In this document: piece after piece, positions 42,826-57,416 of the stretch
Position numbering within the stretch: the stretch's first letter is position 1
Layout: each line of letters begins with the position of its first letter
Assembly (NCBI GenBank): GCA_041665505.1
Contig: JBAYIR010000003.1
Location: 45,363 to 109,362, forward strand
DNA from: Patescibacteria group bacterium
GTDB lineage: Bacteria > Patescibacteriota > Patescibacteriia > UBA1558 > GWA2-36-10
DNA length: 64,000 nucleotides
Direction of reading: 5' to 3'
Made by a program: the position numbers and the translations under genes
The notes under the pieces: model-generated
The model's input: only the letters and a program-made list of their open reading frames with translations
Databases searched by the model: none
Told to the model about the DNA's origin: nothing

Positions 42826-43827
42826 ATGTCTATAAAAACTGCAACACATCATTATGTGCCCAGGTGTTACCTAGAGAATTTTTTATGTGAAAAATCTAAT
42901 AATCAAATTTACGGGTATAAAAAGAGTGGTGAAATAATTAAATCAAATATAAAAAATATAGCTGCAAAGAATAATTTATATACATTTACTGATAAAACAA
43001 CAGGTAAAAAAACTAATATTGTTGAGAAAATGTTTGGAATAATAGAGTCAGCAGCCTGTCCGGTTATAAAAAATGTTATAGTTAATAAAGATATAAATTT
43101 AACAGATGCAGATAGAGGTGCTATAGCACAGTTTACAGCTTTTTTAGTAACTAGAAATTTATATTATGATACTCAGCAGAAGCACATGACTGCTGAACTT
43201 ATTAAACAAATGTCGATTGAAAGAGCCAAACATAAAGAATCTTTCAAGCATAGTTTTAAAGATGCTGGAATTACATTTGACAGCGATAAAGAATTTGAAG
43301 ATTTAAGAGATGCAGTATTAGATTTTGACAATCATTTTAAAGTTGATATAAGTGGGGGCGAGGGACATTTTATGAAAGTGGCAACTGACATAGCCATGGA
43401 ATTAACCAATATATTATATTTTAAAGAGTGGCACTTACTTATTAACGATGGTTCTCGTGTTTTTATCACCTCGGATAATCCTGTTACTCTCTGGGGTTTG
43501 AAAAGTACACCTAAGCAATTTAGATTGGGGTTTGCATTTGCATCTATTCTTTTAACTCTATCACCAGATGTATTACTTTTAATGCGTGATAGATTACTTA
43601 GTAAAACAATAATTAAATTAAATAGGGAAAAAATAGATTATGTAAATAAATCAATTATGAAAGGATCTGATAAATTTATTTATTCAAATTTAAAGTCTAA
43701 AGATTTATATAATAAATATTCGGAGTTATCTCAACACTCAAATCAAGTAAAAGTTCATAATATAAAATGGGCACCATATATTATTACACAGCAACCTGAA
43801 GCAGATATTGAGCCATCATTAGTCTAA
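42826..43827 (+). CDS. DUF4238-family protein (a family reported as a stand-alone anti-phage defence gene)
   Basis: N-terminal HHYVPRCYLENF matches the hallmark HhYvPqfYLrnF start of DUF4238; 333 aa. Confidence 0.65.
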   Translation: MSIKTATHHYVPRCYLENFLCEKSNNQIYGYKKSGEIIKSNIKNIAAKNNLYTFTDKTTGKKTNIVEKMFGIIESAACPVIKNVIVNKDINLTDADRGAIAQFTAFLVTRNLYYDTQQKHMTAELIKQMSIERAKHKESFKHSFKDAGITFDSDKEFEDLRDAVLDFDNHFKVDISGGEGHFMKVATDIAMELTNILYFKEWHLLINDGSRVFITSDNPVTLWGLKSTPKQFRLGFAFASILLTLSPDVLLLMRDRLLSKTIIKLNREKIDYVNKSIMKGSDKFIYSNLKSKDLYNKYSELSQHSNQVKVHNIKWAPYIITQQPEADIEPSLV

Positions 43828-43892: not shown

Positions 43893-44615
43893 CTATAGTT
43901 TCTTTTGTATATGTCTTTCTATTATCTTATTTACATATTTATTTTTTAACCTGAAAGCCCTAATTTCAGCTGGTTGATTACTAAATGGTTGAACTGTTTT
44001 TGATTTATTACAATTTGGATCTTTAAATTTACCATTATGCTTGGGGCAGATAGTTAAATATTCATGCTGACCCTGATGTATATCGTGAGCCCGGCCCTCT
44101 TTTATTTTGGAAATAATTAAATTATAATCAGGCCGAAGTTCATTTAAAACTTTATTATCCATTTCCCATAAAAAAACATATTTTATAGTATATTCTGACC
44201 TAGACTTACTTTTCAAGTGTATATAAAAAATAAACAATATCTTTTTATTTTTTTTATAAAGTTCTGATTCCGTAATATCATTACATAAAGCTTCTTTACT
44301 ATAATTTATTATATTAAGCGATAATGGCTCTTTCACTCTTAAGGTCTTGTTATCAGATAAATATTTAAGCGGACATGTTTTTATTTCTATCCCCAGATGA
44401 TTTATATCTGGTAAAGCAGAGCTGTTCATATTTATTCCAAAGAAACCTTTTTCTATTAAGTAGCCAACATTGCCTTTAGTTGTGACCCTTGATTCTTCAT
44501 CTGATGTTTTTATAGATTTATGAATCTGATTCAAAGTTTTGCCTTCTAGCCACTTTGCTTCTTTTAATAAGGCTTCTTCGTTTGGTATGTCTTCAATTTT
44601 TTTATAGTTTATCAT
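43893..44615 (-). CDS. MutH/Sau3AI-family GATC-type endonuclease (restriction component)
   Basis: TKGNVGYLIEKGFFGINMNSSALPDINHLGIEIKTCPL aligns with the MutH block KGWIGVLLEIWLG ... PEQDFAALGVELKTIPV. Divergently paired with a C5-MTase. Confidence 0.75.
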   Translation of the reverse strand: MINYKKIEDIPNEEALLKEAKWLEGKTLNQIHKSIKTSDEESRVTTKGNVGYLIEKGFFGINMNSSALPDINHLGIEIKTCPLKYLSDNKTLRVKEPLSLNIINYSKEALCNDITESELYKKNKKILFIFYIHLKSKSRSEYTIKYVFLWEMDNKVLNELRPDYNLIISKIKEGRAHDIHQGQHEYLTICPKHNGKFKDPNCNKSKTVQPFSNQPAEIRAFRLKNKYVNKIIERHIQKKL

Positions 44616-44707
44616 ATTTTGTTAATATATTTTATGTAAAATAATGAAATTTGATCAATTTTAATCTTTATGTTATAATAGCAATAAATATATAAGTCAG
44701 CAAACTT

Positions 44708-45982
44708 ATGCCAAATAATAAAAAGAAAAAAACAATTAAAGTTATAGACCTTTTTGCCGGTGTCGGAGGCTTTCGTGTTGGGTTAGATAGAGCAAGTAAT
44801 ACAAAATATGGCTCTTTTGAGACCATCTGGAGCAATCAATGGGAGCCAGCTACCAAGAAACAACATGCTTCCGAAGTATATGTAGCTCGTTTTGGTAATA
44901 AAAACCACTCTAATGAAGATATAGCTAAAGAAGTGCAAAAGAATAACGTACCTGACCACGATCTTTTGGTTGGTGGTTTTCCCTGCCAAGATTATTCTGT
45001 AGCTAGGACTCTTAGCCAATCTGCTGGCATTGAAGGAAAAAAAGGAGTGTTGTGGTGGGAAATATATAAGATATTAAAAAACAAAGGAGCTAAGGCACCA
45101 AAATATTTATTTCTTGAAAATGTTGATAGATTATTAAAATCACCAGCCAACCAAAGAGGAAGAGATTTCGCAATTATACTAGGTTGTCTGGCAGAGCTTG
45201 GTTATGCTGTTGAGTGGCGTGTTATAAATGCTGCTGAGTATGGTTTTGCTCAAAGAAGAAGACGAGTCTATATATTAGGCTTTAAAAAAGGAACTAAGCA
45301 CTATAAAAAAATTGAAACTTTGCATAAAGAAAATAAGATACTAGATATAATAGAAAAAACTGGAATATTTGCCAAAGCTTTCCCTATAGAAAAAAATGAT
45401 ACTCCCATACCAGACATTAAACTTGATAAAAATATCAAAAAAATATCTGATAATTTTAATAAAGAGAAAGCTGGCTCCCGTAGCCTATTCAATAATTCTG
45501 GCGTCATGTTTAATAATGAAATATTTACATTACAAGTAAAAGAAGATTACACTGGCCCAAAGAAAACCATAGGTGACATAATATTACCTCTCAATAAAAT
45601 ACCAAAAGAATTTTTCATAGATAAAAATAGTTTAAAGAAATGGAAATATTTAAAAGGTGCAAAAAAAGAGCCTAGAAAAGGAAAGGATGGTCATGAGTTT
45701 TTCTATACTGAAGGTGGTATGGTTTTCCCTGATGCACTTGATAAACCATCCAGGACTATTATAACTGGTGAGGGTGGAGCATCTCCATCTAGATTTAAAC
45801 ACGTAATTGAACAAGATGGACAACTAAGAAGACTAACTCCTCTAGAGTTAGAACGTTTATGTGGTTTTGATGACCACCATACAGAAGGAGCAGCTGATGT
45901 AAAAAGAGCCTTCTTTATGGGTAATGCTCTCGTGGTTGGTGTTATAGAAAAAATAGGTAGAGAACTAATTAAGCGTGTTTAA
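44708..45982 (+). CDS. DNA (cytosine-5) methyltransferase
   Basis: Motif I IDLFAGVGGFRVGL, motif IV GGFPCQDYSVA, motif VI LFLENV, and C-terminal motifs; 424 aa. Confidence 0.9.
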   Translation: MPNNKKKKTIKVIDLFAGVGGFRVGLDRASNTKYGSFETIWSNQWEPATKKQHASEVYVARFGNKNHSNEDIAKEVQKNNVPDHDLLVGGFPCQDYSVARTLSQSAGIEGKKGVLWWEIYKILKNKGAKAPKYLFLENVDRLLKSPANQRGRDFAIILGCLAELGYAVEWRVINAAEYGFAQRRRRVYILGFKKGTKHYKKIETLHKENKILDIIEKTGIFAKAFPIEKNDTPIPDIKLDKNIKKISDNFNKEKAGSRSLFNNSGVMFNNEIFTLQVKEDYTGPKKTIGDIILPLNKIPKEFFIDKNSLKKWKYLKGAKKEPRKGKDGHEFFYTEGGMVFPDALDKPSRTIITGEGGASPSRFKHVIEQDGQLRRLTPLELERLCGFDDHHTEGAADVKRAFFMGNALVVGVIEKIGRELIKRV

Positions 45983-46076: not shown

Positions 46077-47387
46077 CTATACCAGCTTAATTTTTTTATT
46101 CATATAAATTAACTTGCTTTCTAGATTAGTTAGTAATTCTCTTTTTTCTAAAATTGAACCTTCTTTGAGTAAATATTTAGTATAATTTTTAATATCGATG
46201 TCGTCTACGTTAATGTCTTTAGTTTCTCCAGTTACCATACTTTGGAATTCTTTAAATCGTTTAATTTCATATTTTAATTTATTTTGTATAGGTAACTTTT
46301 TAATATCCAGCTTATCTACCAACTTTTGTAATTGTTTAATCAAATCTACTTCATTTATATACCCACACTTACAATGTTTATCTTTTGCTTTAGTACACCC
46401 ATAATAAATATGTTTGTTAGTATCTCCATTTTTTAATTTCTTGAATTTTTCAGTTGCAGATATACCAGAACCACAAAGTCCACATTTCATTATTTTAGTA
46501 AAAGCAAATTCAATATTTTCTTTTCTAACAAGTTGTGAATTTTTCATCTGATCTTGAACCATATCAAATAATTCTTTTGTTATTATCGGTTCATGCTTAC
46601 CTTGATACCAATTACCACTACCCCGTGGATATTCAAAAGGGCCATAGTAGAAAGTATTTTCAAGTAAGCGATAAATATTACCAAGACTCAAATGTTTTTT
46701 GCCCAAATGTGTTCTGAAGTTTAAATCAAATTTAAGCCAGTGATATATTTTTCTGCCCGACCATTTCTCATAAGCAACTTTTTCAAACATTTGTTTTATA
46801 ATATGGCCTCTATCTGGATCAACTAGACATTCTCCTTTGTGATCTATTCGTTTTTCTTTGAAATATCCAGTTGGCGGACAAGTTGGCCACAAACCCATTT
46901 CACATCTTGTCCTTAAACCACGTTTAACATTTATGCCTCTGTTATCATTTTCCAGTTTAGCTTGAGAACATAGAATCATTAATAAGAATTTTTCGTTTGG
47001 TGAATTACTAAACGTTTGTCCGTAGGTACGAATACCAAGAAGTTTTTTAGCATCCATCAGATCCACCAAAGACCCCAGATCTCCTGCGTTTCTAGATAGT
47101 CTATCTGGCGCCCAAGTTAAGATAGCATTAAATCTTTCTTCTGATATATCATGAATTAATTCTTTAAACACAGGACGATTACCAGAATCTTTAGCTGATT
47201 TGGATTCTCTTCTGATATCAATAATTTCAAGGTTTTCACGTTCTGCAATTTGAAGCATTTCTTTAACTTGAGAATCAATTGATAGAGCTTGTCGTTCATC
47301 TGATTCAGTACTTTTTCGGGCGTATAGGCAATACTTCAATTTAATGTCTGGGGTTAGCCCAAATTTGGTTTGTTGTGATATATTCAT
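46077..47387 (-). CDS. Large serine recombinase (resolvase N-domain, recombinase domain, zinc ribbon)
   Basis: N-terminal YARKSTESDERQALSIDSQ (catalytic Ser region), R..G motif, recombinase domain, and a C-terminal Cys cluster (CGLCGS ... YYGCTKAKDKHCKCG); 436 aa. Confidence 0.85.
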   Translation of the reverse strand: MNISQQTKFGLTPDIKLKYCLYARKSTESDERQALSIDSQVKEMLQIAERENLEIIDIRRESKSAKDSGNRPVFKELIHDISEERFNAILTWAPDRLSRNAGDLGSLVDLMDAKKLLGIRTYGQTFSNSPNEKFLLMILCSQAKLENDNRGINVKRGLRTRCEMGLWPTCPPTGYFKEKRIDHKGECLVDPDRGHIIKQMFEKVAYEKWSGRKIYHWLKFDLNFRTHLGKKHLSLGNIYRLLENTFYYGPFEYPRGSGNWYQGKHEPIITKELFDMVQDQMKNSQLVRKENIEFAFTKIMKCGLCGSGISATEKFKKLKNGDTNKHIYYGCTKAKDKHCKCGYINEVDLIKQLQKLVDKLDIKKLPIQNKLKYEIKRFKEFQSMVTGETKDINVDDIDIKNYTKYLLKEGSILEKRELLTNLESKLIYMNKKIKLV

Positions 47388-47401
47388 ACCCCATTAATGA
47401 C

Positions 47402-47466
47402 ACATTTTATAGCTTTTGCTAAGCTTTTAGCTGTCGACAACTTGTTGGCAAGTTTCCTTAGCAAAA
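47402..47466 (+). repeat. Direct repeat A (~65 nt, internal 10-bp dyad ttttgctaag/cttagcaaaa); partner B at 52165-52230
   Basis: acattttatagcttttgctaagc ... tgtcgacaacttgttggcaa.tttccttagcaaaa is shared by both copies (~88% identity) with a divergent 7-nt central block. Confidence 0.7.
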
Positions 47467-47684
47467 TCGTCAAAAAGCTTTATAATATGGACCTATATGT
47501 CATTTGCTAATATTAGCTATAAATTTGACATTACATCAGTTTAGTAGTATAAATTTATTGCTTGTCAGAGTTGGTACTTTGACAAATTTCGCTTTAAAAC
47601 GTAGAGTGTTATTGATAAAGCTTATTTATTGGTCATTTATCAATAATTTGATATACTTTATTAGTAAATAATTAATTTAAAACA

Positions 47685-48320
47685 ATGAAAAAACAAGGAG
47701 TAATAATTGTAGTGTTTATAATCCTAATAGTATTAGGTGGTTTGGCTTATTGGCAATCTGGCCAAAAACCAGTGGTTAATAATGAAAATAATAATCAAAA
47801 TACTACTAATCAAAATACGAACATTGACAACTCAAATGGGCAAAACACAGAAGAAGTAGACATGGGTGATTGGCTTATTTATACGAATGATGAATACAGG
47901 TTTAGTTTTAGATATCCTAAGGATTGGACTATTTATAATCAAAGTGATAAATACGTATCTTTTAACTACAGCCAAACTTATCTTTCTACAGAGTTGACTC
48001 TTTTTGTATTTCAAAACCCAAATAAAGAGTCTATTCATGATTTCTACAATAATATAGATGAAAATAAAAAAATAGCAGGTAATGATAGCCTAATGTATAA
48101 TTGGTATGCATCAACTGAAGACTATGGATCTCAAAAAAATATTGTAGTTGATGGCATTGAAGCAGTTAATTTTGTATCTCCTATGGGTATAATGGAAAAT
48201 ACTACTGTTTCCATACCAAAAGATAGTTTAATAGTAGAAATCCAAATTAGAGGTGTTGAAGAAATTTTGAAGGATAGTGAATATGAGGCAATTTTGAATA
48301 GTTTTGAATTTACAAATTAA
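47685..48320 (+). CDS. Hypothetical N-anchored secreted protein with an Asn/Gln-rich linker
   Basis: TM or signal anchor VIIVVFIILIVLGGLAYW, NNENNNQNTTNQNTN linker, and a ~150-aa globular part. AT-rich, host-like. Confidence 0.55.
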   Translation: MKKQGVIIVVFIILIVLGGLAYWQSGQKPVVNNENNNQNTTNQNTNIDNSNGQNTEEVDMGDWLIYTNDEYRFSFRYPKDWTIYNQSDKYVSFNYSQTYLSTELTLFVFQNPNKESIHDFYNNIDENKKIAGNDSLMYNWYASTEDYGSQKNIVVDGIEAVNFVSPMGIMENTTVSIPKDSLIVEIQIRGVEEILKDSEYEAILNSFEFTN

Positions 48321-48552
48321 ATAAAGTTTTATAAGAAAAGCGAAATTGAGAGTCACTTACAATGGTTAGTCTTTTTGTATCTAGAAAATAATAAATTATT
48401 ATAGTTTATTATTTTCTGGCTATAATAGTGTAGCCAGAAATAGTTCATTACAACTTAAAACAACAAAACGAGAGGAGTAAAAACAGATTAATTTACTAAT
48501 CCAATGCGGGATTAGTAGACCAGTCATAAAGAATTCTGAAAGAAGGTTCACC

Positions 48553-51500
48553 ATGAGAAAGAGTCTGCTCTTCGCAATGGCAATTGTGATGCTTATGGCA
48601 TCGTCAATTGCCTACGGACAAGGTCCAATCAGCGGGTTTTATTACCCTGCAGACGAGATGCTCAACAGTTGGCAATACTACAATAACCGAAGCTTTTATA
48701 TTTATAATGGTACTTATAACAACCATCTTGGAGCTGATATTGATCTAGCCGAAGGCACGGCCATAAAGGCCATAGCCAAAGGCAAGATAGTAGAGTACAG
48801 CTCACTATATGATGGCTATGGTGAATTGGTAGTAGCGATTGAGCATGAGTTGCCAGAGGATATCACTTTTTTGAATGCTGATGGCAATCCACAAACAACT
48901 AGATATATCCTGTCAATCTATGGCCACCTGCGCAAGAGCCAAGAAAGAGGTGGCACAGCATTGACTTGGTCTATCGGTCAGACCGTTCAGCAAGGGAGTG
49001 TTATTGGCTACATAAACAACAGTAGCCATCCAGATGGTGGTAGCCCAGACCCAAATGGTGATGGACTTGAGCATTTGCACCTAGGGATTCGCTTGTCGAA
49101 CGAAGCAACCGCTAAAGCTCAAGATGGTGGCTTTTGGCTACGCGGATATAATAGTGGATCGGGCATGCAAATTCACTTTGCAAATCCGATGCCCCTTATA
49201 GCCGGACTGGCGCAATTTGCCCAGTCACCTTCCTGGAGGACTGCCAATGGTGTATCATCAGCTTTTATGAACAGGTATAATGATTTCGCCACAAATGGTC
49301 ATCGCCTTGGCTTTCCCTGGCAAAACACTCAGTACGGTTCTACTTATGTCCACGAAGTCAACGGCATGTTGATCCAGGATTTCAAAGATCGCCGCGATGA
49401 TGAGGGGCCTAGTAATGGGTATTATCATCCTTATACAACCGTTATTTACTATAATGATCCTTGGATGAGTAGAGAACCTCATCTCGTCAAGGAGGGATTT
49501 TGGGATGAGTATATGACTCGTTTTGGCTGGCTCAAGTTTGGTGCACCAGTCACTGATGAGTATCCAAATAGTAGTGAAGTGTGGCAGAGTTTTAACCTTT
49601 TTGGTTCAAACTATGCCACCAATCCAAATGATTATGAGCGTTTTTATTTCACTTGGGATGAAGGTTCTCAAACTCTGGAGGTACTTGATAGTAATTATCA
49701 AGTAGTGCCTCGTGCCAATTTGACAGTAACCAACGGAGGAACAAACAAAGCCAACAAAGCGCTCACTGACGGTGTCTATCATTCTGGACTCAAGGTGTCA
49801 AACTTTGACCAGGCCTTTGAACTGATAGATGGAAATAATTATCAGAATTTCTATGCCTCCATTAATGGAGTGGAGATCCTCATGGATCCATTTGTCATGA
49901 ATGGTGATATGACTATAGTTGTTAGTGATGTGGATGTGCCAGTTGCCAACTTCAGTGCAACTCCAATGTCTGGAAATACCCCGCTTACCGTGCAGTTTAC
50001 CGACCTTTCAAGTGGTAACACCACTTCTTGGTTGTGGAACTTCGGTGATGGGGGTACTTCAACCAATCAGAACCCCAACCACACGTATACTACCCCTGGT
50101 AGTTATACTGTCAGCCTAACTGCTACCAATAGTGGTGGGAGTGACACGGTTGTTGGTGGCAGTCCAATTGTCGTTAACAACGTTGCTGCTCCTGTGGCAA
50201 ATTTCAGTGCAACTCCAATGTCTGGATATGCACCACTTACCGTTCAATTCACCGACCTTTCAAGTGGAGGTGCCACTTCTTGGTTGTGGGACTTTGGTGA
50301 CGGTAGTACGTCTACTAGCCAGAATCCTAGTCACACTTACAACATTGTGGGTAGCTACACAGTTTCTCTTACTGCCAGTAATAATGGCGGTAGTGATACT
50401 GTGCTTGGAGGTGCTCCTGTTATAGTAGGTAACCCACCAGCTCCAATAGCTGGTTATACTGTTTCGCCGACTTCTGGCGTTGTCCCTTTGACGGTGCAAT
50501 GTACAGATACATCGGTTGGGACAGTAACCTCGTGGTTGTGGGACTTCGGTGACGGTAGTACGTCTACTAGCCAGAACCCTAGTCACATTTACAACGTTGT
50601 GGGTGTCTACACTATCACCTTGACGGTGTCCAATGCCGGAGGCTGGGACTCTTTACAGTTTATTGACGGTATAACCACTACCAGTGTGTCTAATCTGGCA
50701 CCATGTGTTGTAAGTGACCTAAGCGTAGATAACGTCACAGTTATCTTCGTCTCTGGTAACTACGCCTACGTGGCAGATGGTAGTGCTGGTCTGAAGATCA
50801 TCGACGTTTCTGTTCCTGCAACGCCGACCATAGTTGGTTCGGCTAGTATGGATCACGTCATGGATGTGTTTGTTTCCGGGGACTACGCCTACGTGGCAGA
50901 TGGTAGTGATGGATTGAAGGTGGTCAACATCTCCAATCCGGCGACGCCAGTCATCGTTGGATCGGTAGTCACTGAAGGTGCTGAAGGCCTCTTCGTCTCT
51001 GGTAACTACGCCTACGTAGCTGATCTCTGGACACTAAAGGTCATCAACATCTCCAATCCTGCAACTCCGACAGTAGTTGGTTCGTTGAGCATGGATTGGG
51101 TTGTGGATGTGTTTGTTTCCGGTGACTACGCCTACGTGGCTGATAATGATGTAGGCTTGAAGGTGGTCAACATCTCCAATCCTGCGACGCCAGTCATCGT
51201 TGGATCGGTAGTCACGGACAGTGCTAGGGATGTCTGGATTTCTGGTGACTACGCCTACGTGGCTGATGGTAGTACTGGCTTGAAGGTGGTCAACATCTCC
51301 AATCCTGCGACGCCAGTCATCGTTGGTTCGGTAGTTACGAATGGAGCTATTGGCGTTTCTGTTTCCGGTGACTATGCCTATGTGGCAGACGTTAGCGCTG
51401 GCTTGAAGATCATTGATGTTTCTGATTCTACAACACCAACCATTGTTGGTGCGGTAGAGGCAGGTGGTTATATTAAAGACGTCTTCGTACTAGGAGACTA

Positions 51501-52080
51501 TATTTATTTGACAGAGTTCCATGAAGCAATGAAAATAGTCCAAAAAGATTGTGGGCTATTCCTGTCTGCAGACTTCACCGCTAACCCAACCAGCGTCTAT
51601 ACTGGTAACCCTGTTCAGTTCACTGACCAATCAACTGGAAACCCTAGTTCTTGGTCATGGAATTTCGGTAACGGCGTTACCTCAACTGCACAAAATCCGA
51701 TCTACGCTTACCCAGTTCACGGCACCTACACGGTGTCATTGACAGTAGGGGATGGAGTTACTTCAGACACTTTGGTGCGTACTGGCTACATTACGTCGTC
51801 AAGACCACCTATTGGTGAAGATCCTCCTTATCCCTACTGTGAACCCAACCCCTCTAACCCTGTTTCTGTCATCAAGTTCAAGGTCAATCAACCTGGCTAT
51901 GTCAACCTGTCCATTTTTGATGTACAGGGTCGACGCGTTCAGGTTTTGGTTGATCAGGTTCTTGATACTGGTGTGCATCAAGCGACTTTTAATGGCGAAA
52001 GTTTTGCCTCCGGCATCTACTTCTACATGATACGTAGTGCCGAGGGGACTGACGTCCGAAAGATCACACTGGTGAAGTAG
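48553..52080 (+). CDS. Secreted multidomain protein of foreign origin: M23 peptidase-like domain, four PKD domains, LVIVD beta-propeller repeats, a further PKD domain and a T9SS (Por) C-terminal sorting domain
   Basis: Signal peptide MRKSLLFAMAIVMLMASSIAYGQG. M23-like HLGADIDLAEGTAIKAIAKGKIV ... EHLHLGIR. PKD consensus repeated (FSATPMSG.TPLTVQFTDLS ... W.FGDG.TST.QNP.HTY ... GSYTVSLTA.N). Seven GDYAYVADG.GLKVVNISNPATP LVIVD units. C-terminal VNLSIFDVQGRRV ... GIYFYMIRS Por-tail. GC about 48% against ~31% for the flanks, and no SD upstream. Confidence 0.85.
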   Translation: MRKSLLFAMAIVMLMASSIAYGQGPISGFYYPADEMLNSWQYYNNRSFYIYNGTYNNHLGADIDLAEGTAIKAIAKGKIVEYSSLYDGYGELVVAIEHELPEDITFLNADGNPQTTRYILSIYGHLRKSQERGGTALTWSIGQTVQQGSVIGYINNSSHPDGGSPDPNGDGLEHLHLGIRLSNEATAKAQDGGFWLRGYNSGSGMQIHFANPMPLIAGLAQFAQSPSWRTANGVSSAFMNRYNDFATNGHRLGFPWQNTQYGSTYVHEVNGMLIQDFKDRRDDEGPSNGYYHPYTTVIYYNDPWMSREPHLVKEGFWDEYMTRFGWLKFGAPVTDEYPNSSEVWQSFNLFGSNYATNPNDYERFYFTWDEGSQTLEVLDSNYQVVPRANLTVTNGGTNKANKALTDGVYHSGLKVSNFDQAFELIDGNNYQNFYASINGVEILMDPFVMNGDMTIVVSDVDVPVANFSATPMSGNTPLTVQFTDLSSGNTTSWLWNFGDGGTSTNQNPNHTYTTPGSYTVSLTATNSGGSDTVVGGSPIVVNNVAAPVANFSATPMSGYAPLTVQFTDLSSGGATSWLWDFGDGSTSTSQNPSHTYNIVGSYTVSLTASNNGGSDTVLGGAPVIVGNPPAPIAGYTVSPTSGVVPLTVQCTDTSVGTVTSWLWDFGDGSTSTSQNPSHIYNVVGVYTITLTVSNAGGWDSLQFIDGITTTSVSNLAPCVVSDLSVDNVTVIFVSGNYAYVADGSAGLKIIDVSVPATPTIVGSASMDHVMDVFVSGDYAYVADGSDGLKVVNISNPATPVIVGSVVTEGAEGLFVSGNYAYVADLWTLKVINISNPATPTVVGSLSMDWVVDVFVSGDYAYVADNDVGLKVVNISNPATPVIVGSVVTDSARDVWISGDYAYVADGSTGLKVVNISNPATPVIVGSVVTNGAIGVSVSGDYAYVADVSAGLKIIDVSDSTTPTIVGAVEAGGYIKDVFVLGDYIYLTEFHEAMKIVQKDCGLFLSADFTANPTSVYTGNPVQFTDQSTGNPSSWSWNFGNGVTSTAQNPIYAYPVHGTYTVSLTVGDGVTSDTLVRTGYITSSRPPIGEDPPYPYCEPNPSNPVSVIKFKVNQPGYVNLSIFDVQGRRVQVLVDQVLDTGVHQATFNGESFASGIYFYMIRSAEGTDVRKITLVK

Positions 52081-52109
52081 CTCCGTTTGTTGTTTTGAAA
52101 CCCTAACCG

Positions 52110-52155
52110 AGCCCTACTTGTTGCACGCAGTGCAGCGGGTAGGGCTTATTTTTTT
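52110..52155 (+). terminator. Rho-independent terminator after the foreign gene
   Basis: agccctac ... gtagggct stem with an internal GC-rich hairpin, followed by TTTTTTT. Confidence 0.65.
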
Positions 52156-52164
52156 ATATAAATA

Positions 52165-52230
52165 ACATTTATATAGCTTTTGCTAAGCCTCGCTATGTCG
52201 ACAACTTGTTGGCAACTTTCCTTAGCAAAA
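52165..52230 (+). repeat. Direct repeat B (partner of A at 47402-47466)
   Basis: See repeat A; the same orientation on the + strand. Confidence 0.7.
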
Positions 52231-52488
52231 CTATAAAATTGCGTTATGATAATATAGACATTTGGCTAGTTTTGAGCTAAAATGTTATTGACAATTAGGT
52301 GTAAAAACCGATGCCTAAACCCTAGAAATTCTAGGGCATGGTATAAAAAACTCGTTGAAAATATTGAACTCCGCGTTCAGTGACTTTTCAACGAGTCATA
52401 TCGGGAAACTGGTATGGGGCCGTAAGGCCTAGCTGGCGCGGGGTTTTATGTTTGCGTCAGCTGATAATTAATAAGTAAGTAAAATATT

Positions 52489-52989
52489 ATGAAAAAAGCA
52501 CTATTTTTACTTTTGATGACCGTAGTAGTTACAACTGGTTGTACAACCCAGTCAAATACTATCCAATCATCTACAGATTCATCAAGCCAGAAAAGCGTGA
52601 GTACTAATGTACAAAAACTAAATTTAACAGACAAGGTCGATGTTAAATTAATAGATAAAGGTTTTCAGGCAGCTGATATCTACAAAGGTACTTATCAAGA
52701 TTATATTACTATGAAGTTTGAATTAACCAATAAGACTGATAAGGATGTCAAAGGTGTCCAAGGAAATACTATTTTCTATGATATATTTGATAATCAAATA
52801 TATCAGTCTACCTTCAGTTATGATCAAGGAATATTAGCTAGTGGCACAGCCACTTGGGACGCCACTATAGAATATAATGAATTTATGGATGATCATCAGA
52901 AGTTGAAAACTACTAATCTAGAAAATATAAGATTAGAATGGGTGCCAGAGGTTATTATCTATAGCGATGGTACTAAAGAACAAGTCTAA
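52489..52989 (+). CDS. Lipoprotein (166 aa)
   Basis: Signal peptide with lipobox LMTVVVTTGC, a Ser/Thr-rich linker, and a small beta-rich domain. Confidence 0.6.
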   Translation: MKKALFLLLMTVVVTTGCTTQSNTIQSSTDSSSQKSVSTNVQKLNLTDKVDVKLIDKGFQAADIYKGTYQDYITMKFELTNKTDKDVKGVQGNTIFYDIFDNQIYQSTFSYDQGILASGTATWDATIEYNEFMDDHQKLKTTNLENIRLEWVPEVIIYSDGTKEQV

Positions 52990-53009
52990 TTATTATTAAA
53001 TAAATATTT

Positions 53010-53435
53010 ATGAAAAAGTACAGAGCTTTAAAAATTCTCTTAACACTTTTGCCAGCTTTGGTGTTTACTCAAAACTGGGCTTGGATGAGTGCTAACAAAA
53101 TACTAGGTATTGCTTTTATAGTAATATGGGCACTTATGATTTGGTCAGTTTGGAAAATAGACAATAAGTACAAAATATTACAAAAAATATTTAGAGCCAC
53201 AGAAATAGGTTTTTTCCTATTACCTATTTCAGCTATAATTCTTACCTTTGTCATAGGTGCCCAAGCAGTTAACTCAACTAACGATGAATTTGCTCAGGCT
53301 GGCGCCGCTATAGGTACAGCTATTGGTGGCACCTTTATTGTAGTCTTAGCTTTTATCTTTGGATTATCAGGAGGCATAATCTTGCACTTGATAGCCAACA
53401 AGTATGAGAAAAAGGCAGAGCAAAATAGTAAATAG
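53010..53435 (+). CDS. Small integral membrane protein (4 TM)
   Basis: 141 aa with four hydrophobic helices. Confidence 0.5.
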   Translation: MKKYRALKILLTLLPALVFTQNWAWMSANKILGIAFIVIWALMIWSVWKIDNKYKILQKIFRATEIGFFLLPISAIILTFVIGAQAVNSTNDEFAQAGAAIGTAIGGTFIVVLAFIFGLSGGIILHLIANKYEKKAEQNSK

Positions 53436-53438
53436 AAA

Positions 53439-54902
53439 TTAAGCAAAATAAATTCTATAAGTTTTTGGTCTATGTTCTGATAAGCTATGGACCAGATTGG
53501 CAAAGGCATCAGCTAAGTCGTCATGTTTTTCTACCCCAAAATGAATAATCTGTTGTATCAATTGTTCAGCTCCTTGTTTAGGAAATAGTATCTGTCCATT
53601 TTTGATCATGTTAGCTGTCAGGACAAGGCGACTACGCTTGTCCTGATTACCTGGCCTTGTTGTCATGACGTTCAAAATACCCTCACTTTCTAATTGTTGC
53701 GGCAAAGCTTTTTGATAAGCTACATCTTCAATAACAAAGGTAGGATGAATTTCGTCCTTTTCGTAGCTTTTGTCCAATATTTTGCAGGTATCAACGGTTT
53801 CCGGAAAGCTCAAACGTTTATTTATTATCTTTGGCAAAATATAAATCTGATAACCAGTTTTGGTTTCATATAGAAGTCCGGGAACCATAGCCGTATAATC
53901 AGCCACATTACTTTTTGAAATAGCTGGATCTATACCTATTCTTATTTCAATATGAGAAGAATAAGCACTGTCTATTTTTATAGGAGCTGGTATCTCATCA
54001 TAGTATTGAATCCATTCTGGATATATAACTTGATCTTCATCTGGAACTATATTAAGCATATATTCTCGTTGCCAAGCAATTTCATTGCCTGTTTTTTTTC
54101 GTTCTGTTTGTACGTCTTGCTCTGTAGGATATTTACCAGGCCAGAGACATTTTCCTTTACTATCAATAATTGGAAAATAAAGAAATTTTCCATCAATAAA
54201 ATCATTATCAATTTCACTTTTAAGTCGCATGAGAAGTGAATCTTCGTGTAATAAATTACCAACTATAACTAACCGTGTATTTTTATCTCCTGCTGGGATT
54301 AATTCTCCTTTTAACCATTGATAAGTCTTATTTCTTCCTTCTCTTGTTTTTGTAGAAGCAATATTTTCAACATCGTCACAGATTATCAAATCTGGTCTAT
54401 GCTCATGATGTCTTAAACCGCGAATACTTTGTTCTGAAGAAGCTACTGTAATACGAGCGTCTGTATTAGAAAATACCAATGACTGTGAACCCCACTCATC
54501 GCTATCTTCACGAAATGGGCCGAGGTCTTTTTTAAGTAATTCGTTGTCCTCAAGTTCACGGCGTAAATTCATCATATGCTGTTTGGCCTGGGCTTGTGTC
54601 TGACAAAATATAACGACGAATCTCTTTTGCTGTTTACCTAAAATAGCCCAAATAGGATAGGCGGTTGTAACCATTGTCGATTTTCCACTTCCCCTGAAGG
54701 CGACCACAAATAGATTGTCTCGGTCACTTATTTCTATTAAATGGATAATCTCTTTTTGGAAATCAGCTGTAGCGTATTTTACATAGTGAGCGTAATAAAA
54801 ATGGAAAAAATATGAAAAACTTTCTTTAGTTATTGTCGTCCTTACTTTCCTGTCCTTGGTCATCTGGTCTACCAGATCCTGTGGTATCATTTTGTTTGTC
54901 AT
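53439..54902 (-). CDS. Phage terminase large subunit
   Basis: N-terminal ATPase Walker A VAFRGSGKSTMVT and Walker B LIICDDVEN. C-terminal RNaseH-like nuclease region with acidic residues; 487 aa. Confidence 0.75.
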   Translation of the reverse strand: MTNKMIPQDLVDQMTKDRKVRTTITKESFSYFFHFYYAHYVKYATADFQKEIIHLIEISDRDNLFVVAFRGSGKSTMVTTAYPIWAILGKQQKRFVVIFCQTQAQAKQHMMNLRRELEDNELLKKDLGPFREDSDEWGSQSLVFSNTDARITVASSEQSIRGLRHHEHRPDLIICDDVENIASTKTREGRNKTYQWLKGELIPAGDKNTRLVIVGNLLHEDSLLMRLKSEIDNDFIDGKFLYFPIIDSKGKCLWPGKYPTEQDVQTERKKTGNEIAWQREYMLNIVPDEDQVIYPEWIQYYDEIPAPIKIDSAYSSHIEIRIGIDPAISKSNVADYTAMVPGLLYETKTGYQIYILPKIINKRLSFPETVDTCKILDKSYEKDEIHPTFVIEDVAYQKALPQQLESEGILNVMTTRPGNQDKRSRLVLTANMIKNGQILFPKQGAEQLIQQIIHFGVEKHDDLADAFANLVHSLSEHRPKTYRIYFA

Positions 54903-55296
54903 CTGATTTATTATTTAATGGTAAAATCTCCGCCAGTTGCAAAGCTTTGCGTACAATCTCTGCTTGTGACGGTGTAAGTTCTCCTGAGTCTTCAAATTTA
55001 GAAGTAACTTCCACTTTATCTCTAAATTTTGGATTTCTATGATTAAGCCAAAATCTTATAGCCGAAAAGTTTTTTTCTTTTATAAGGGTAAGTAATTGGC
55101 TTTCACTCATATCATTGACCAATGCCTCACCTTCGGTTAATGCCTCATCCATAGCTTTAGAGAAATTTTTATCATCTCGTTTCCAACGATAGATACTATT
55201 TCTTGAGATACCTGTTTTTTCACAGGCTATCTGTACGATTGGAATTTTCTTTAGTTCCTCTAGGAATATATTTTTGATTTTATTTTTCTTAGACAT
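54826..55296 (-). CDS. HTH DNA-binding protein, probable phage terminase small subunit
   Basis: IVQIACEKTGISRNSIYRWKRDD helix-turn-helix, acidic C-terminal tail, positioned immediately upstream of and overlapping the large terminase. Confidence 0.5.
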   Translation of the reverse strand: MSKKNKIKNIFLEELKKIPIVQIACEKTGISRNSIYRWKRDDKNFSKAMDEALTEGEALVNDMSESQLLTLIKEKNFSAIRFWLNHRNPKFRDKVEVTSKFEDSGELTPSQAEIVRKALQLAEILPLNNKSDDKQNDTTGSGRPDDQGQESKDDNN

Positions 55297-56563
55297 GATC
55301 CACCTTTGCCTTTCTGCCAGTTAACTTCTCATATCTTCTAATTGTTAGGTCACAAAATATAGGCTCTAACTCAAGGGCATATACTTTTCGTTTTAATTGT
55401 TCCCCAGCTGAAATGGTGCTACCTAACCCAGAGAAGGAATCTAAAATGATGTCGCCAGGCTTAGTACAACGGCGAATAGCCTTCTCGTGTAGCTTTGGTG
55501 GTTTGCTGGTCGCGTGTTCGTATTTTTGACCAGATAAGCGTTTTACCAACCATATATCAAGCTCATCAGAAGCTTCACTAAGTAGATTATTGCCAGTTGT
55601 TATTTCTTTATTCAATACCTCATTTAAGTTTTGAATTGATGGTGCAATATATGGTTTTCCTATAACCCCATATACTGTTGGCTCATAACATTTATTAAAA
55701 GCCACTTTTGGTGTCGGGTTTTGAGAGTTTTTGAGCCATAGGCAAACTCGCTTGTTTACTATGCCAAGCTCTCGATATAATTCTTGAATTAATCCTATGT
55801 AGGTTTGGTCACACCAGTAGAAAATATGGCAATTTGATTTAGTAATTGATAGTGCTACCACCAGAGTTTCTTTTATGAAGTTTCTATATTCCTCATAGGT
55901 ACGGCTATCATTTACATTACCGCCGTAGTCATTTTTACCTCCAATACCTTTTGAGTAATTAAGATTGATGTTATATGGGGGATCGGAATAAATCATTGAA
56001 GCTTTTTCATTCCCAAACAATCTTTTTAGATTTTTCGTATCGCTAGAGCTACCACATAACAACTTATGTGGTCCCAGATGAATTAAATCACCTAGTTTAG
56101 TTTTAGGCTCTTTAATCTTTTTAATTTCTTCATCAACGTCAAAGTCTTCATCTTTAACCTCTAGATTATTATCCCATAGGTGTGATAGATCAACTTGATC
56201 GAATCCTATGTCGACCAATAGGTCTAAATCAAAAGATTTGAGTTTTTCGAAATCCCATTCACCACCTAGAGCGTTGCTGGCTATAAGGTAGCTATCTGAT
56301 TCCTTTTTGGTTAAAGGTCTGTTGGGGATGCGGATATCAATTAACTCTTCTCCTCGACCTAGTAGCTGAAGAGCTTTAATTCTTTGATGTCCTGCGAGTA
56401 TCTTGCCGTCTAGGTCAATTGCTGGTATCTCTACCAAATTGTATCTTTTCAGGCTTTTTTTGAGATCCGACATTTGCTTGTCGGAAATAGTTCGTGGGTT
56501 AATATCTTGGGGGACAAGATCATTAACCCGTTTCGGCACGGTGTGCCATTTTAATTTTTCCAT
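55289..56563 (-). CDS. Phage-type DNA methyltransferase with an N-terminal ParB-like nuclease domain (N6-adenine or N4-cytosine class)
   Basis: ParB-N-like VEIPAIDLDGKILAGHQRIKAL, motif IV SDPPY, and a SAM-binding region FSGLGSTISAGE; 424 aa. Confidence 0.8.
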   Translation of the reverse strand: MEKLKWHTVPKRVNDLVPQDINPRTISDKQMSDLKKSLKRYNLVEIPAIDLDGKILAGHQRIKALQLLGRGEELIDIRIPNRPLTKKESDSYLIASNALGGEWDFEKLKSFDLDLLVDIGFDQVDLSHLWDNNLEVKDEDFDVDEEIKKIKEPKTKLGDLIHLGPHKLLCGSSSDTKNLKRLFGNEKASMIYSDPPYNINLNYSKGIGGKNDYGGNVNDSRTYEEYRNFIKETLVVALSITKSNCHIFYWCDQTYIGLIQELYRELGIVNKRVCLWLKNSQNPTPKVAFNKCYEPTVYGVIGKPYIAPSIQNLNEVLNKEITTGNNLLSEASDELDIWLVKRLSGQKYEHATSKPPKLHEKAIRRCTKPGDIILDSFSGLGSTISAGEQLKRKVYALELEPIFCDLTIRRYEKLTGRKAKVDHV

Positions 56564-56734
56564 AACATTTTATGGTTAGTTGGTTAAAAAATGTATGGAT
56601 AAGAAAAAACCTATTCCACACACGAAATAGATGAAGTCCTAAAACCTCAAAGCTATTTCTTGCGCGGAACAGGCATGGCTTTTTCAGCGATACGCTATTC
56701 TACTTTTTACTACGCATTAAATTGTACTTATATT

Positions 56735-57142
56735 TTAATCCACATTTTTATTTTTTGCAAGTTTGCGGATAATCCTTTGACCATTTTTACTTTTTATAAA
56801 ATTTTCGGTATCTTTGCCTATGGCTATTGGCAGGCCATCTTTGGGTATGGAAATTAGCACTTTGTAGCCTTTTTTCTCTTCTTTTTGTAATAATTTAATA
56901 AAAGAGGGATCTTTATACAGATTTTCCAAAAACCAATCAGCACTAGGAGTATGACCATTGTTTATAATAGGACCATAAACTCGGTCTGGCCTGTTTTGGT
57001 CAAAAGCATGTTTTACTTTCTTACCTATATATTTCGTCGGCTGTTTGTCACTGGTATGCAGAGCAAAATCAGTCAATTGAATAACCTTGTATTTGACCCC
57101 ATCTTGCCTTTTAAATGGTTTTACCTCTAGTTTGTAGTCCAT
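56735..57142 (-). CDS. Hypothetical protein (135 aa)
   Basis: ORF with host-like composition in the phage-derived module; no motif recognised. Confidence 0.4.
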   Translation of the reverse strand: MDYKLEVKPFKRQDGVKYKVIQLTDFALHTSDKQPTKYIGKKVKHAFDQNRPDRVYGPIINNGHTPSADWFLENLYKDPSFIKLLQKEEKKGYKVLISIPKDGLPIAIGKDTENFIKSKNGQRIIRKLAKNKNVD

Positions 57143-57151
57143 AGTTATTTT

Positions 57152-57397
57152 TTAGCCTTTAGATTTAGTTGGATCAGCGCTCTTGGGATAGGTTCGTTCT
57201 TCTTCATAGGTTCCATCCATTTTTTTAATTTTTACAGATCCGCCTTCATTACCTACGGCTTTTCTTAAAATTCCGCCAGCTGTGGCCTCTTCTTTAGTTT
57301 CGAAAGTTTTAACGATTTTATCTGTTTTGTCATTTTCTAGTTCCCAACGATCTTTTTTTGCGTTGTAATCGAGGGTAAATTTTGGTAATTTTGCCAT
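57152..57397 (-). CDS. DUF2188-like small protein
   Basis: W.L ... KTFETKEEATAGG ... GSVKIKKMDGTYEEERTY fits the DUF2188 pattern common on phages and mobile elements. Confidence 0.45.
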   Translation of the reverse strand: MAKLPKFTLDYNAKKDRWELENDKTDKIVKTFETKEEATAGGILRKAVGNEGGSVKIKKMDGTYEEERTYPKSADPTKSKG

Positions 57398-57416
57398 AAA
57401 TTTGTAGTTTATTTAA

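Follow-up and report, generated by a model that had tools for sequence, protein, structure and literature searches.

A two-gene surface-enzyme cassette between two copies of a recombinase-linked control region in a phage-derived island of Patescibacteria

A cassette of two genes in a Patescibacteria genome was probably inserted by reciprocal crossover into the control region between a large serine recombinase (LSR) gene and a divergent LOOT RNA of a phage-derived island. In the stretch of DNA analysed here (the window, 64,000 nucleotides of contig JBAYIR010000003.1, assembly GCA_041665505.1), a 211-aa gene and a 1175-aa gene lie between direct copies of one site, A and B, at a spacing of 4764 nt, and the LSR gene adjoins them. 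We regard the insertion, the duplication of the site and the empty site in relatives as established. The case is a clean natural example of streamlined CPR genomes gaining surface-enzyme genes, because a whole, expression-ready two-gene module has been placed at a fixed recombinase-linked site of which relatives keep the unoccupied state; moreover, it exposes a conserved island family of Patescibacteria.

Site copy A (47393–47530) has a central unit at 47412–47466 that consists of the arm TTTTGCTAAG, an 8-nt spacer, the core TGTCGACA-ACT-TGTTGGCA and the arm CTTAGCAAAA, and in site copy B (52155–52300) the central unit is at 52176–52230. A 55-nt pattern with 8 free positions matched only copies A and B, with 0 matches expected in shuffles. 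In an ungapped comparison of 83 nt (47405–47487 and 52169–52251), the two halves of the direct repeat share 81% of their positions, among them blocks of 16, 20 and 14 nt that are identical between A and B, and similarity between the copies spans about 105–135 nt. Hence the repeat described in the initial annotation is real, and its extent and identity need correction, as the 65 nt that were put at ∼88% agree at 54/65 positions (83%, ungapped). The 10-bp inverted arms TTTTGCTAAG and CTTAGCAAAA were likewise found in both copies, but the centre of the repeat is not divergent as had been proposed: the true centre is the 20-mer TGTCGACAACTTGTTGGCAA, which is the same in both, and the 7-nt block that differs fully (TTTTAGC vs CTCGCTA) is the spacer to the left of it. 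This spacer is hypervariable among lineages. An outward sigma-70-like promoter at 47458–47486 on the forward strand (TTAGCA-17-TATAAT, 10/12 matches) faces the cassette genes, and its −35 box is the right arm of the site; in copy B, promoters are predicted at 52222–52250 and 52255–52283. Moreover, the right arm is missing from compact loci and is kept beside a different left motif in type-2 sites. Thus the 10-bp dyad is not clearly a pair of recombinase half-sites.

The two copies differ on the side of the recombinase, where the LSR-proximal halves are identical at only 31/56 positions while the flanking blocks are perfect. The left half of copy A is native and matches the site of the closest relative, L014, at 52/54 positions. 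The left half of copy B matches that site at 33/56 positions, with a wholly different spacer and an intact arm and core, so it is not a recent copy of the left half of A and comes from the site of another lineage. No LSR gene is attached to this foreign-lineage half, in which the arm and core are perfectly kept beside a decayed LSR-proximal box (ATAAATAACA against ATTAATGACA); the other half of copy B leads into the LOOT RNA. The foreign LSR-side half of copy B implies that the resident site and another one, of foreign origin, underwent a reciprocal crossover. The crossover point could not be mapped, because the part on the right side of the core shows no clear difference between A and B in closeness to the relatives.

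The site is kept at the 5′-end of LSR family genes in ∼100 related loci, one copy in each, and no second copy was found by nhmmer and self-BLAST in the 83 LSR loci and 17 IMG/VR loci searched, so that the window is the only locus with two. When the intervals from TerL to the LSR in relatives were searched with high sensitivity, again no second site was found. Two Komeilibacteria MAGs carry the 20-mer core, in each case precisely at the 5′-end of an LSR homologue (84% and 67% identity). The closest relative has the LSR, site and LOOT without the cassette (identities 98% aa for TerL, 98% for the 141-aa protein, 86% for the 166-aa protein and 88% for the LSR), and one 105-nt stretch of its sequence aligns to both A and B; L013 and L017 have the same one-site layout of LSR, site and LOOT. 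The repeat is the conserved intergenic control region that lies between a gene of this LSR family and a divergent LOOT RNA. These and other relatives supply the empty site that the initial annotation had asked for, and with the site present in ∼100 loci they uphold its link between the insertion site and the adjoining serine recombinase. A circular form or an empty-site variant of the window's own population was searched for and none was found. On chromosome-sized contigs the site lies unbroken between TerL and the LSR, and hence it was not divided when the island integrated.

The LSR gene (46077–47387, reverse strand, 436 aa) does not belong to the interval that the repeats enclose. Its start codon is 6–18 nt from copy A, which thus abuts the recombinase gene as first noted. 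Matches to the Pfam families Resolvase (PF00239, 72 bits), Recombinase (PF07508, 48 bits) and Zn_ribbon_recom (PF13408, 32 bits), a YARKST serine motif that is invariant across the LSR alignment (A4), and relatives in the PDB that include the SPbeta YokA and TP901-1 integrases indicate that the protein is a bona fide integrase-type enzyme. The LOOT RNA (RF03000; 52312–52430, forward strand) scored 89.4 bits against a gathering threshold of 46.4 over model positions 1–121. In 31/35 other LOOT matches the RNA is divergent from an LSR gene and ≤461 nt away; normally its immediate divergent neighbour, it is displaced by 4.76 kb here by the cassette. In the literature that we found mentioning LOOT, it is described only as a metagenome-based or bacterial RNA (Rfam 14, PMC7779021; PMC7657543). 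The full-length match here agrees with that motif and adds to the published description a definite group of hosts and a constant genomic neighbour, the LSR, and with these the function of an orphan RNA is now testable.

Between the LSR site and TerL there are two resident genes (52489–53435, forward strand), for a 166-aa lipoprotein-like protein and a 141-aa membrane protein. They are followed by a phage-derived module co-oriented with the LSR (53439–56563, reverse strand), which comprises TerL (53439–54902), a TerS-like HTH protein (54826–55296) and a ParB-methyltransferase (55289–56563), all on the reverse strand; PHROGs matches for the ParB-methyltransferase/TerS/TerL module were phrog_38 (274 bits), phrog_4044/309 and phrog_498 (259 bits). 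By tblastn, homologues of TerL, the TerS-like HTH protein and the ParB-methyltransferase were found in 49, 48 and 43 of the 83 loci, respectively, and TerL is upstream of the LSR in the same orientation in the relatives' loci. Other phage-type genes are an XRE and ImmA-like pair and a Dda-like helicase, and no capsid, portal or tail genes were seen. In the window, a direct repeat of ∼130 nt at 38553 and 62190 brackets 23.6 kb. The island family (ParB-methylase, TerS, TerL, site and LSR) is highly conserved and widespread in Patescibacteria, with >430 relatives in one metagenome scan, and has two variable intervals, one on either side of the LSR, with R-M-like cargo.

We consider it probable that one reciprocal crossover of the Campbell type brought in the cassette, with the resident site as one partner and, as the other, a homologous site on the incoming DNA, which would have been circular. 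One hybrid copy of the site would then flank each side of the cassette: copy A would have retained the native LSR-proximal half and given its outward promoter to the cassette, and copy B would have received the foreign LSR-proximal half and retained the LOOT promoter. The positions of promoters and terminator fit this layout. Among ∼100 relatives no further locus with two sites was found, so the case documents one event and does not demonstrate an activity. Catalysis of the exchange by the adjacent LSR is a tentative proposal, plausible but unproven, and its main alternative is RecA-type exchange through the short identical blocks.

An origin in which the recombinase had no part is rather unlikely. 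In one version, RecA would use the short identical blocks to recombine a homologous DNA that was circular or integrated in tandem; the other version starts from a tandem pair of related islands, in which a later deletion would have removed the stretch that begins with the donor TerL and ends with the resident LSR. Both routes would leave two control-region copies around donor cargo, and the 16-, 20- and 14-nt blocks shared by the copies, the position of the LSR gene outside the bracketed segment and the difference of the sites from canonical attL/attR all agree with them. Moreover, in other loci the cargo in the interval from TerL to the LSR site varies and lacks a site copy at its distal end (c22-c16 in L093, L040 and L096 are examples), which indicates that cargo turnover there does not in general require the core. 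Identical stretches of ≤20 nt broken by fully mismatched blocks are, however, poor substrates for RecA, and the tandem version needs two events whose endpoints coincide exactly with a terminator and with the first codon of the LSR gene. The survival of the arm and core in copy B beside the decayed LSR-proximal box also speaks against both, and suggests that the arm and core may have a function of their own. Duplication of the control region in place, as a long target-site or local tandem duplication into which the genes were inserted later, would neatly account for a duplicated unit that is the whole LSR-LOOT intergenic region. We consider it very improbable, because a 7-nt spacer that differs everywhere and is hypervariable between lineages, together with 31/56 identity in the LSR-proximal half beside perfect flanking blocks, indicates two site lineages and not drift after a local duplication.

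The cargo of the presumed crossover is co-oriented on the forward strand. The large gene (ORF call, 48553–52080) encodes a secreted protein of 1175 aa with, in order, a signal peptide, an M23 domain, an unknown domain, three PKD domains, six LVIVD repeats, one PKD domain and a T9SS type-A C-terminal domain. Pfam searches gave the four PKD domains, the six LVIVD repeats and Peptidase_M23 at residues 57–184 (PF01551, 35.5 bits against a cutoff of 28.7), in which the zinc-binding motifs HxxxD/HxH are present as HLGAD at residue 58 and HLH at 174. Por_Secre_tail (PF18962; residues 1098–1171, 32.7 bits against a cutoff of 27) and TIGR04183 (extreme C-terminus, 34.7 bits against 23) bear out the Por/T9SS domain first assigned to this ORF. 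The PKD and LVIVD domains are of an adhesin-like kind, and the T9SS-type tail is a beta-sandwich. Judged from these domains, the protein may serve in cell-wall attack or remodelling at the surface of the episymbiont cell. The GC content of the ORF (46.7%, earlier given as ∼48%) is indeed far above that of the left (34.4%) and right (33.0%) flanks, and its GC3 of 0.44 exceeds the 0.20–0.32 of neighbouring genes, so the excess is not only due to amino-acid composition. A Shine-Dalgarno sequence, thought to be lacking, is partially present as GAAGG 7 nt upstream of the ATG, and an intrinsic terminator with an 18-bp stem and T-run follows the gene at 52109–52147 (forward strand). The small gene (47685–48320, GC 28.9%) encodes an N-terminally anchored PsbP_2-like protein of 211 aa (Pfam PsbP_2, E=4e-5) that is named ‘PsbP-related protein [Patescibacteria group bacterium]’ in NCBI. 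Between the two genes is a structured intergenic region (48321–48552, forward strand; MFE −51.5 kcal/mol, z=−4.8), and 48311–48476 matches two places in the Patescibacteria module L001 at 73–74% nucleotide identity.

By homology, the cassette is a two-gene module native to CPR, and we count its CPR origin as settled. The pair of small and large genes recurs in at least four other genomes (L001, L004-7, L008 and L009), one of which is a named Patescibacteria MAG and the others CPR-like, and the 211-aa protein is 50% identical to a 193-aa protein of L004 and 30–31% identical to both L001 partners; the small gene is thus a conserved partner of the large one and not an unrelated host-like neighbour, as had been supposed. 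The N-terminal 470 aa of the large protein are 64, 63 and 60% identical to homologues in the CPR-like contexts L008, L004 and P0121, and named matches of this part are from Patescibacteria or Moraniibacteriota. Over the last PKD domain and the T9SS-type tail, a protein from Patescibacteria shares 64% of the residues, including all of the final 14; these 14 residues, and 47 synonymous against 61 non-synonymous codon differences, indicate that the tail is conserved and not decaying. Moreover, nucleotide homology to L001 passes the terminator and reaches ∼52160, the edge of copy B.

The initial annotation favoured a recent cross-phylum transfer of a Bacteroidota gene whose T9SS sorting domain would be useless in CPR, and expected the nearest relatives in Bacteroidota. 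In favour of this, the T9SS type-A domain is real, the host values of GC and GC3 are far exceeded, and many LVIVD relatives bear Por_Secre_tail or FlgD_ig tails, which are typical of the FCB group. This reading is nevertheless largely refuted already, and we hold it to be most unlikely, because the nearest relatives of the N-terminal half, the partner and the PKD-plus-tail part are all Patescibacteria or CPR-like at 50–64% aa identity and the tail is conserved against its Patescibacteria homologue. In the homologue search, the LVIVD part had no relative above 52% identity and none named Bacteroidota. In each of the five genomes examined the large gene has a raised GC3, and this holds also for syntenic orthologues that lie between uvrC and uvrA; raised GC3 is hence a trait of the whole M23-PKD gene family, and a GC island alone is no proof of recent foreign origin. 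In its large secreted multidomain architecture with PKD repeats and a terminal TIGR04183/PF18962 domain, the protein resembles the T9SS type-A cargo of Bacteroidota/FCB, and it differs in that the host is a Patescibacteria MAG. To our knowledge, Patescibacteria have no outer membrane and no known T9SS, and no T9SS machinery components were found among the subset of window ORFs scanned. Since homologues in CPR conserve the tail, it presumably has a different role in these bacteria, and calls of T9SS secretion from the domain alone are unsafe.

A chimeric or contaminant assembly, in which a higher-GC fragment was joined to a CPR contig at the repeat, was suggested by a GC step inside a region with repeats at both ends, and can be dismissed almost entirely: the ENA MEGAHIT contig ERZ27249449 (129 kb) is 100% identical over 20.6 kb with both junctions, the Logan contig SRR6484324 matches the window through junction A at 100% identity so that three assemblies agree, a low-GC partner gene sits within the repeat-bounded unit, and the GC step separates the small cassette gene from the large one instead of falling at the repeats, as in four other genomes.

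The attL and attR sites of serine integrases are hybrids (B/P′ and P/B′) that share a short crossover core and have unrelated outer arms, and canonical LSRs do not recombine two like sites. An unoccupied site is found in relatives (L013, L014 and L017), but A and B are homologous over their ∼105–135 nt including both arms and are not P/B hybrids, and the LSR gene (46077–47387) is outside the A–B interval (47393–52300), whereas an integrated element of this kind carries its recombinase gene within, beside one att site. Hence, of the comparison with att sites in the initial annotation, the recombinase-linked insertion site stands, and the attL/attR reading is doubtful given copies homologous throughout, an outside LSR and an arm that is a −35 box. 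Serine-integrase prophages and islands (phiC31, Bxb1, A118, TP901-1 and SPbeta SprA) share with this locus the LSR domain architecture, a site directly 5′ of the integrase gene, where attP often is, and neighbours such as TerS, TerL, ParB-methylase, XRE, ImmA-like and Dda-like helicase genes; unlike in these elements, the site here is unsplit between TerL and LSR, the two copies are not hybrids and capsid, portal and tail genes were not seen. With its LSR, XRE/ImmA-like pair, TerS, TerL and Dda-like helicase and no structural genes seen, the island is a candidate for a phage satellite or PICI-like island.

Staphylococcal SCC elements (CcrA/B, CcrC) likewise occupy one fixed chromosomal site with direct repeats at their ends, and Ccr enzymes are permissive about site combinations. 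CcrB is the best NCBIfam model for the LSR, with a score of 115 bits that is far under the equivalog cutoff of 900, and is followed by XisF with 72 bits. However, ccr genes are inside SCC whereas the LSR is outside the cassette, and SCC repeats are ∼15–18 bp at the end of rlmH, compared with a 105–135-nt promoter region here.

Integrons (IntI, attI, Pc, attC) resemble the locus in a recombinase gene that adjoins its own site, in an outward promoter within the site that reads co-oriented cargo, a layout conserved in this family, and in a new unit that is recombinase-proximal and followed by a second site copy. They differ in that IntI is a tyrosine and not a serine recombinase, and in that here one cassette is known, with two genes and its own terminator, no attC-like folded sites are present, and recurrent cassette arrays are absent, as the 83 LSR and 17 IMG/VR loci have no second site. 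An integron-like platform is thus not supported beyond this single case, and we regard as improbable the idea that the LSR, the site with its outward promoter and LOOT form a serine-recombinase gene-capture platform, an integron analogue, in phage-derived islands of CPR. If it were true, circular cassettes bearing the site would be inserted beside the recombinase and expressed from the site promoter, with LOOT taking part in controlling or targeting the reaction, and an intermediate in which both site copies persist would have been captured for the first time in the window.

The 1175-aa gene (48553-52080, +) and the 211-aa gene upstream of it are enclosed by a direct repeat, whose copies A (47393-47530) and B (52155-52300) lie 4764 nt apart and share 81% identity across an ungapped 83 nt, with similarity extending over about 105-135 nt when gaps are allowed. 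The initial annotation was right that repeats bracket both genes, but its figure of ~88% identity over 65 nt becomes 54/65, within a longer region of similarity. A 55-nt pattern taken from the repeat matched at these two places alone and gave 0 matches in shuffles. As had also been described, copy A abuts the recombinase gene: the start codon of this gene, which encodes a 436-aa large serine recombinase (LSR; 46077-47387, -), is 6-18 nt away from the beginning of the copy. The LSR has Resolvase, Recombinase and zinc-ribbon domains and is related to the SPbeta YokA and TP901-1 integrases and, by model, to CcrB and XisF. The central unit of the site consists of a left arm TTTTGCTAAG, an 8-nt spacer, a core TGTCGACAACTTGTTGGCA, ~7 nt and a right arm CTTAGCAAAA. 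The core, a 20-mer TGTCGACAACTTGTTGGCAA readable as two 11-nt direct units or two 8-nt near-palindromes, was also found in two Candidatus Komeilibacteria MAGs, in each case precisely at the 5′ end of an LSR homologue (84% and 67% identical). The right arm is the -35 box of an outward promoter, TTAGCA-17-TATAAT in copy A (47458-47486) and TTAGCA-17-TATGAT in copy B (52222-52250), the latter followed by TAGACA-17-TAAAAT. We also considered whether the left arm serves as an LSR promoter's -35 box, and rejected this because a consensus scan gave no acceptable -10 box.

The same site recurs in relatives of this recombinase. A metagenome scan returned >430 LSR relatives from many environments, the best 80 of which are 66-92% identical. 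By nhmmer at E<=1e-3 the site was detected in 33/83 non-window loci, always directly upstream of the LSR gene, and manual alignment of 72 distinct upstream regions showed that most loci carry the motif family, which comes in two sequence types. Left arm and core are always kept where a type-1 LSR is present, and the spacer between them is hypervariable among lineages; the right arm is absent from compact loci without a divergent gene, and is retained in type-2 sites next to a different left motif. Just after copy B lies a LOOT RNA (RF03000; 52312-52430, +). Searches with Rfam and with a model built from five hits found LOOT in 36/84 sources, among them the LSR loci L013 (5995-6122) and L014 (7095-7210), and 31 of the 35 non-window matches are divergent from the LSR and lie <=461 nt from it, usually at 70-166 nt. 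This position indicates that the repeat is the whole LSR-LOOT intergenic control region. No degenerate LOOT copy was detected after copy A by Rfam at E<=10 or by local alignment against shuffles. Beyond the end of the LOOT model, the window and L013 share a conserved 3′ extension, AGCTGGCNCGGGG..TTTT. The papers found to mention LOOT (PMC7779021, PMC7657543) describe it just as a metagenome-based or bacterial RNA. Our literature search returned nothing on LOOT function or on serine recombinases with terminases in Patescibacteria (CPR); here LOOT is linked to a CPR LSR family as its divergent neighbour.

Related loci also show the site in its empty form. On the side of the terminase large subunit (TerL) the closest relative is L014, with identities of 98% for TerL, 98% for a 141-aa protein, 86% for a 166-aa protein and 88% for the LSR; its order is TerL, 141, 166, LOOT, site, LSR, and the cassette is absent. 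One 105-nt stretch of L014 aligns to the window up to 47497 and again from 52158 onward. Two further LSR loci, L013 and L017, have the same empty arrangement, so that the view of the cassette as lying at a recombinase-linked site is borne out, and the empty site that the initial annotation had proposed to look for exists as a single copy in three relatives. An exact-protein look-up for cassette-free variants in the same population gave none, save a 2-kb contig ending short of the site.

The two copies differ in a patterned way. The arm of copy B, inside a 16-nt identical block ATAGCTTTTGCTAAGC, and its 20-nt core are the same as in copy A, the spacer has no matching position, and copy B has a decayed LSR-proximal box (ATAAATAACA against ATTAATGACA). 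To the left, copy B matches L014 at 33/56 positions and copy A at 52/54. Judged by this comparison, the left half of copy B is the LSR-side half of another lineage's site, now without its LSR gene, and no recent copy of the left half of A. The spacer sets the left limit of the exchange; the right limit is not mappable, since both copies stand at about the same distance from relatives to the right of the core. We tried to map the crossover from the A/B hybrid character, which was clear for the left half and ambiguous for the right, where the counts are 32/38 against 30/41 with L014 and 28/40 against 33/41 with L013; a description of L013 as left like A and right like B was dropped on account of these ambiguous counts.

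An insertion with duplication of the site is, in our judgement, highly probable. The simplest history would be that a circular molecule of ~4.76 kb with a complete foreign site underwent a single reciprocal crossover with the resident site. This molecule would have carried, in order, the promoter half, the 211-aa gene, a structured spacer, the 1175-aa gene and a terminator. Such a crossover would yield LSR, A, cassette, B and LOOT, with one copy of the outward promoter facing the cassette and another facing LOOT, and excision would be expected to give an empty site ...GCTAAGCTTTTAGCTGTCGACAACTTGTTGGCAACTTTCC... and a circle junction ...GCTAAGCCTCGCTATGTCGACAACTTGTTGGCAAGTTTCC....

That the LSR itself catalysed the exchange is a tentative and somewhat doubtful reading. 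It is favoured because the exchange lies within the LSR's own conserved upstream site, because the identical blocks are short and interrupted, and because arm and core are kept in copy B, which has no LSR gene under its control. Most of the remaining probability belongs to a RecA-type exchange, or to tandem islands followed by deletion, either of them without LSR catalysis; the event is seen once among about 100 loci, cargo present elsewhere in the TerL-to-site interval comes without a distal site copy, the sites are similar from end to end and do not look like P/B hybrids, the cassette does not include the LSR gene, and a promoter role can explain the dyad arms, all of which disfavour catalysis by the LSR. 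No second site copy was found in other LSR loci by nhmmer, self-BLAST and a relaxed search of the TerL-to-LSR intervals, and a search of IMG/VR for the circle junction or additional sites gave no matches.

A transfer of the large gene from Bacteroidota, as first proposed, is not supported. The domains reported for it were all recovered, and the protein consists of a signal-peptide-like N-terminus, a Peptidase_M23 domain with intact motifs HLGAD (residue 58) and HLH (residue 174), an unassigned domain of ~280 aa, three PKD domains, six LVIVD repeats, a fourth PKD and a C-terminal Por_Secre_tail/TIGR04183, the T9SS sorting domain. However, the host genome is listed in NCBI as a 'Patescibacteria group bacterium' MAG, and the small and large genes form a conserved module in other CPR genomes, lying between dprA and ileS on a 1.03-Mb Patescibacteria contig (L001) and between uvrC and uvrA in L004-L007 and L008, with a further pair in L009. 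Over its N-terminal 470 aa the large protein shares 63-64% identity with L004 and L008 and 60% with a paralogue on the L001 contig; between the 211-aa protein and its L004 counterpart, identity is 50%. The last PKD and tail are 64% identical to the Patescibacteria protein P0112, with 47 synonymous and 61 non-synonymous codon differences. The final 14 residues are identical; the tail, a genuine T9SS-type one, is thus kept in CPR homologues and is no decaying relic. For the LVIVD block, no relative was >52% identical, and the named matches are spread over many phyla with none in Bacteroidota, where the nearest relatives had been expected. Nucleotide homology to L001 extends past the terminator to ~52160, the edge of copy B; no flanking repeats, site or LOOT were found around the homologous pairs in L001, L004, L008 and L009.

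The unusual base composition of the gene is confirmed: GC is 46.7% in the 1175-aa ORF against 34.4% and 33.0% on its two sides, and GC3 is 0.44 against 0.20-0.32 in adjoining genes, so that the excess involves codon choice and goes beyond amino-acid content. GC3 of the large gene exceeded that of its neighbours and of its own small partner in 5/5 genomes examined, at 0.44 vs about 0.25 in the window (48553-52080), 0.44 vs 0.31 in L001 (8001-11345), 0.32 vs 0.26 in L004 (8001-11081), 0.45 vs 0.29 in L008 (8001-13682) and 0.62 vs 0.3-0.5 in L009 (2582-6556). The L004 and L008 genes, between uvrC and uvrA, look like vertically inherited orthologues (identities: UvrA 86%, UvrC 64%, large-gene N-termini 73%). 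Because GC3 is raised in all five genomes, these two included, the anomaly is a trait of the M23-PKD family and does not signal a recent acquisition from Bacteroidota; our guesses at its cause are GC-biased gene conversion and repeated transfer between lineages of CPR. A chimeric assembly is contradicted by a 129-kb ENA MEGAHIT contig (100% identity to the window over 20.6 kb, both junctions covered), a Logan contig (100% identity across junction A) and a JGI contig as third assembly, and the step in GC separates one cassette gene from the other and does not coincide with the repeats.

From its domains, the large protein is probably a secreted M23 peptidoglycan endopeptidase whose PKD and beta-propeller (LVIVD) domains form a stalk. 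Such a protein would fit a role in attacking or remodelling cell wall where an episymbiotic CPR cell meets its surroundings, at the cell surface; its 211-aa PsbP-like partner is predicted to be membrane-anchored. Patescibacteria are not known to have an outer membrane, and hence the T9SS-type tail presumably acts in another way in CPR. The spacer between the cassette genes (48321-48552) folds far better than shuffles (z=-4.8, three hairpins), and 48311-48476 has 73-74% identity to the sequence that follows each of the two small-gene paralogues in L001; the spacer may function as a terminator/antiterminator or as a conserved regulatory RNA.

The LSR and its site belong to a conserved CPR island family with ParB-methyltransferase, TerS-like HTH, TerL, site and LSR (window 53439-62015; loci L014-L100). 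By tblastn over 83 loci, TerL was found in 49, the TerS-like HTH in 48 and the ParB-methyltransferase in 43, upstream of the LSR and co-oriented with it. The TerL stop lies from about 50-170 nt up to 4.7 kb from the LSR start, and up to 8 kb in IMG/VR contigs with the same island type; some islands of the family are listed there as viral contigs. XRE and ImmA-like proteins and a Dda-like helicase lie near the island core, and no capsid, portal or tail genes were seen in the family. Cargo intervals on both sides of the LSR hold large R-M-like gene sets; the genes downstream of it are variable among loci and often large, and we read these as R-M-like from size and order only. One two-gene set, made up of clusters c22 (about 780 aa) and c16 (about 580 aa), occupies the TerL-LSR interval in some loci and is found downstream of the LSR elsewhere (L093 5661-9697 and L040 5300-9374 versus L042 and L038), which suggests that cargo, or the LSR gene itself, changes sides. 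In the window, a type II R-M pair (MutH/Sau3AI-like endonuclease and C5 cytosine methyltransferase) and a DUF4238 protein, at 43893-45982 and 42826-43827 in all, lie directly downstream of the LSR; none of the three is conserved beside the LSR in other loci. A 4.2-kb contig (L011, CAZXZY010000046.1) binned as 'uncultured Gammaproteobacteria' encodes a CPR LSR (83% identity) and part of TerL and also has the site; its label is probably a binning error.

At larger scale, a ~130-nt direct repeat (38553-38682 and 62190-62315; 88% by BLAST, 96% over a 98-nt stretch), with no Rfam family match, starts at the 3′ end of tRNA-Ser(tga) and encloses 23.6 kb with tRNA-Arg, a GIY-YIG ORF, tRNA-Ser(gct), ABC/FtsX/MarR genes, an R-M system, the LSR, the cassette, TerL and a Dda-like helicase. 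In L015 and L013, homologues of 62034-62195 adjoin tRNA-Arg or the end of tRNA-Ser(gct). These repeats may be the island ends. Elsewhere in the window (11100-23274 and 30490-32415), two very large ORFs of 2889 aa and 1158 aa, the 1158-aa one with no Pfam match, and a VirB4/TraG-like ATPase are typical CPR surface and type IV-like machinery.

The main value of the locus lies in the LSR-LOOT-terminase island family, in a preserved insertion intermediate with empty-site relatives, and in a GC-rich gene family with T9SS-type tails in CPR bacteria. Copies A and B, first likened to att sites, are not a canonical serine-integrase attL/attR pair. The arrangement departs from Ccr/SCC insertion and from the integron first cassette in the defining features of both, and shares with them a recombinase beside a fixed site, direct repeats around cargo and an outward promoter. 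The island as a whole is like a phage satellite in having TerS, TerL, XRE/ImmA-like proteins and a Dda-like helicase without structural genes.
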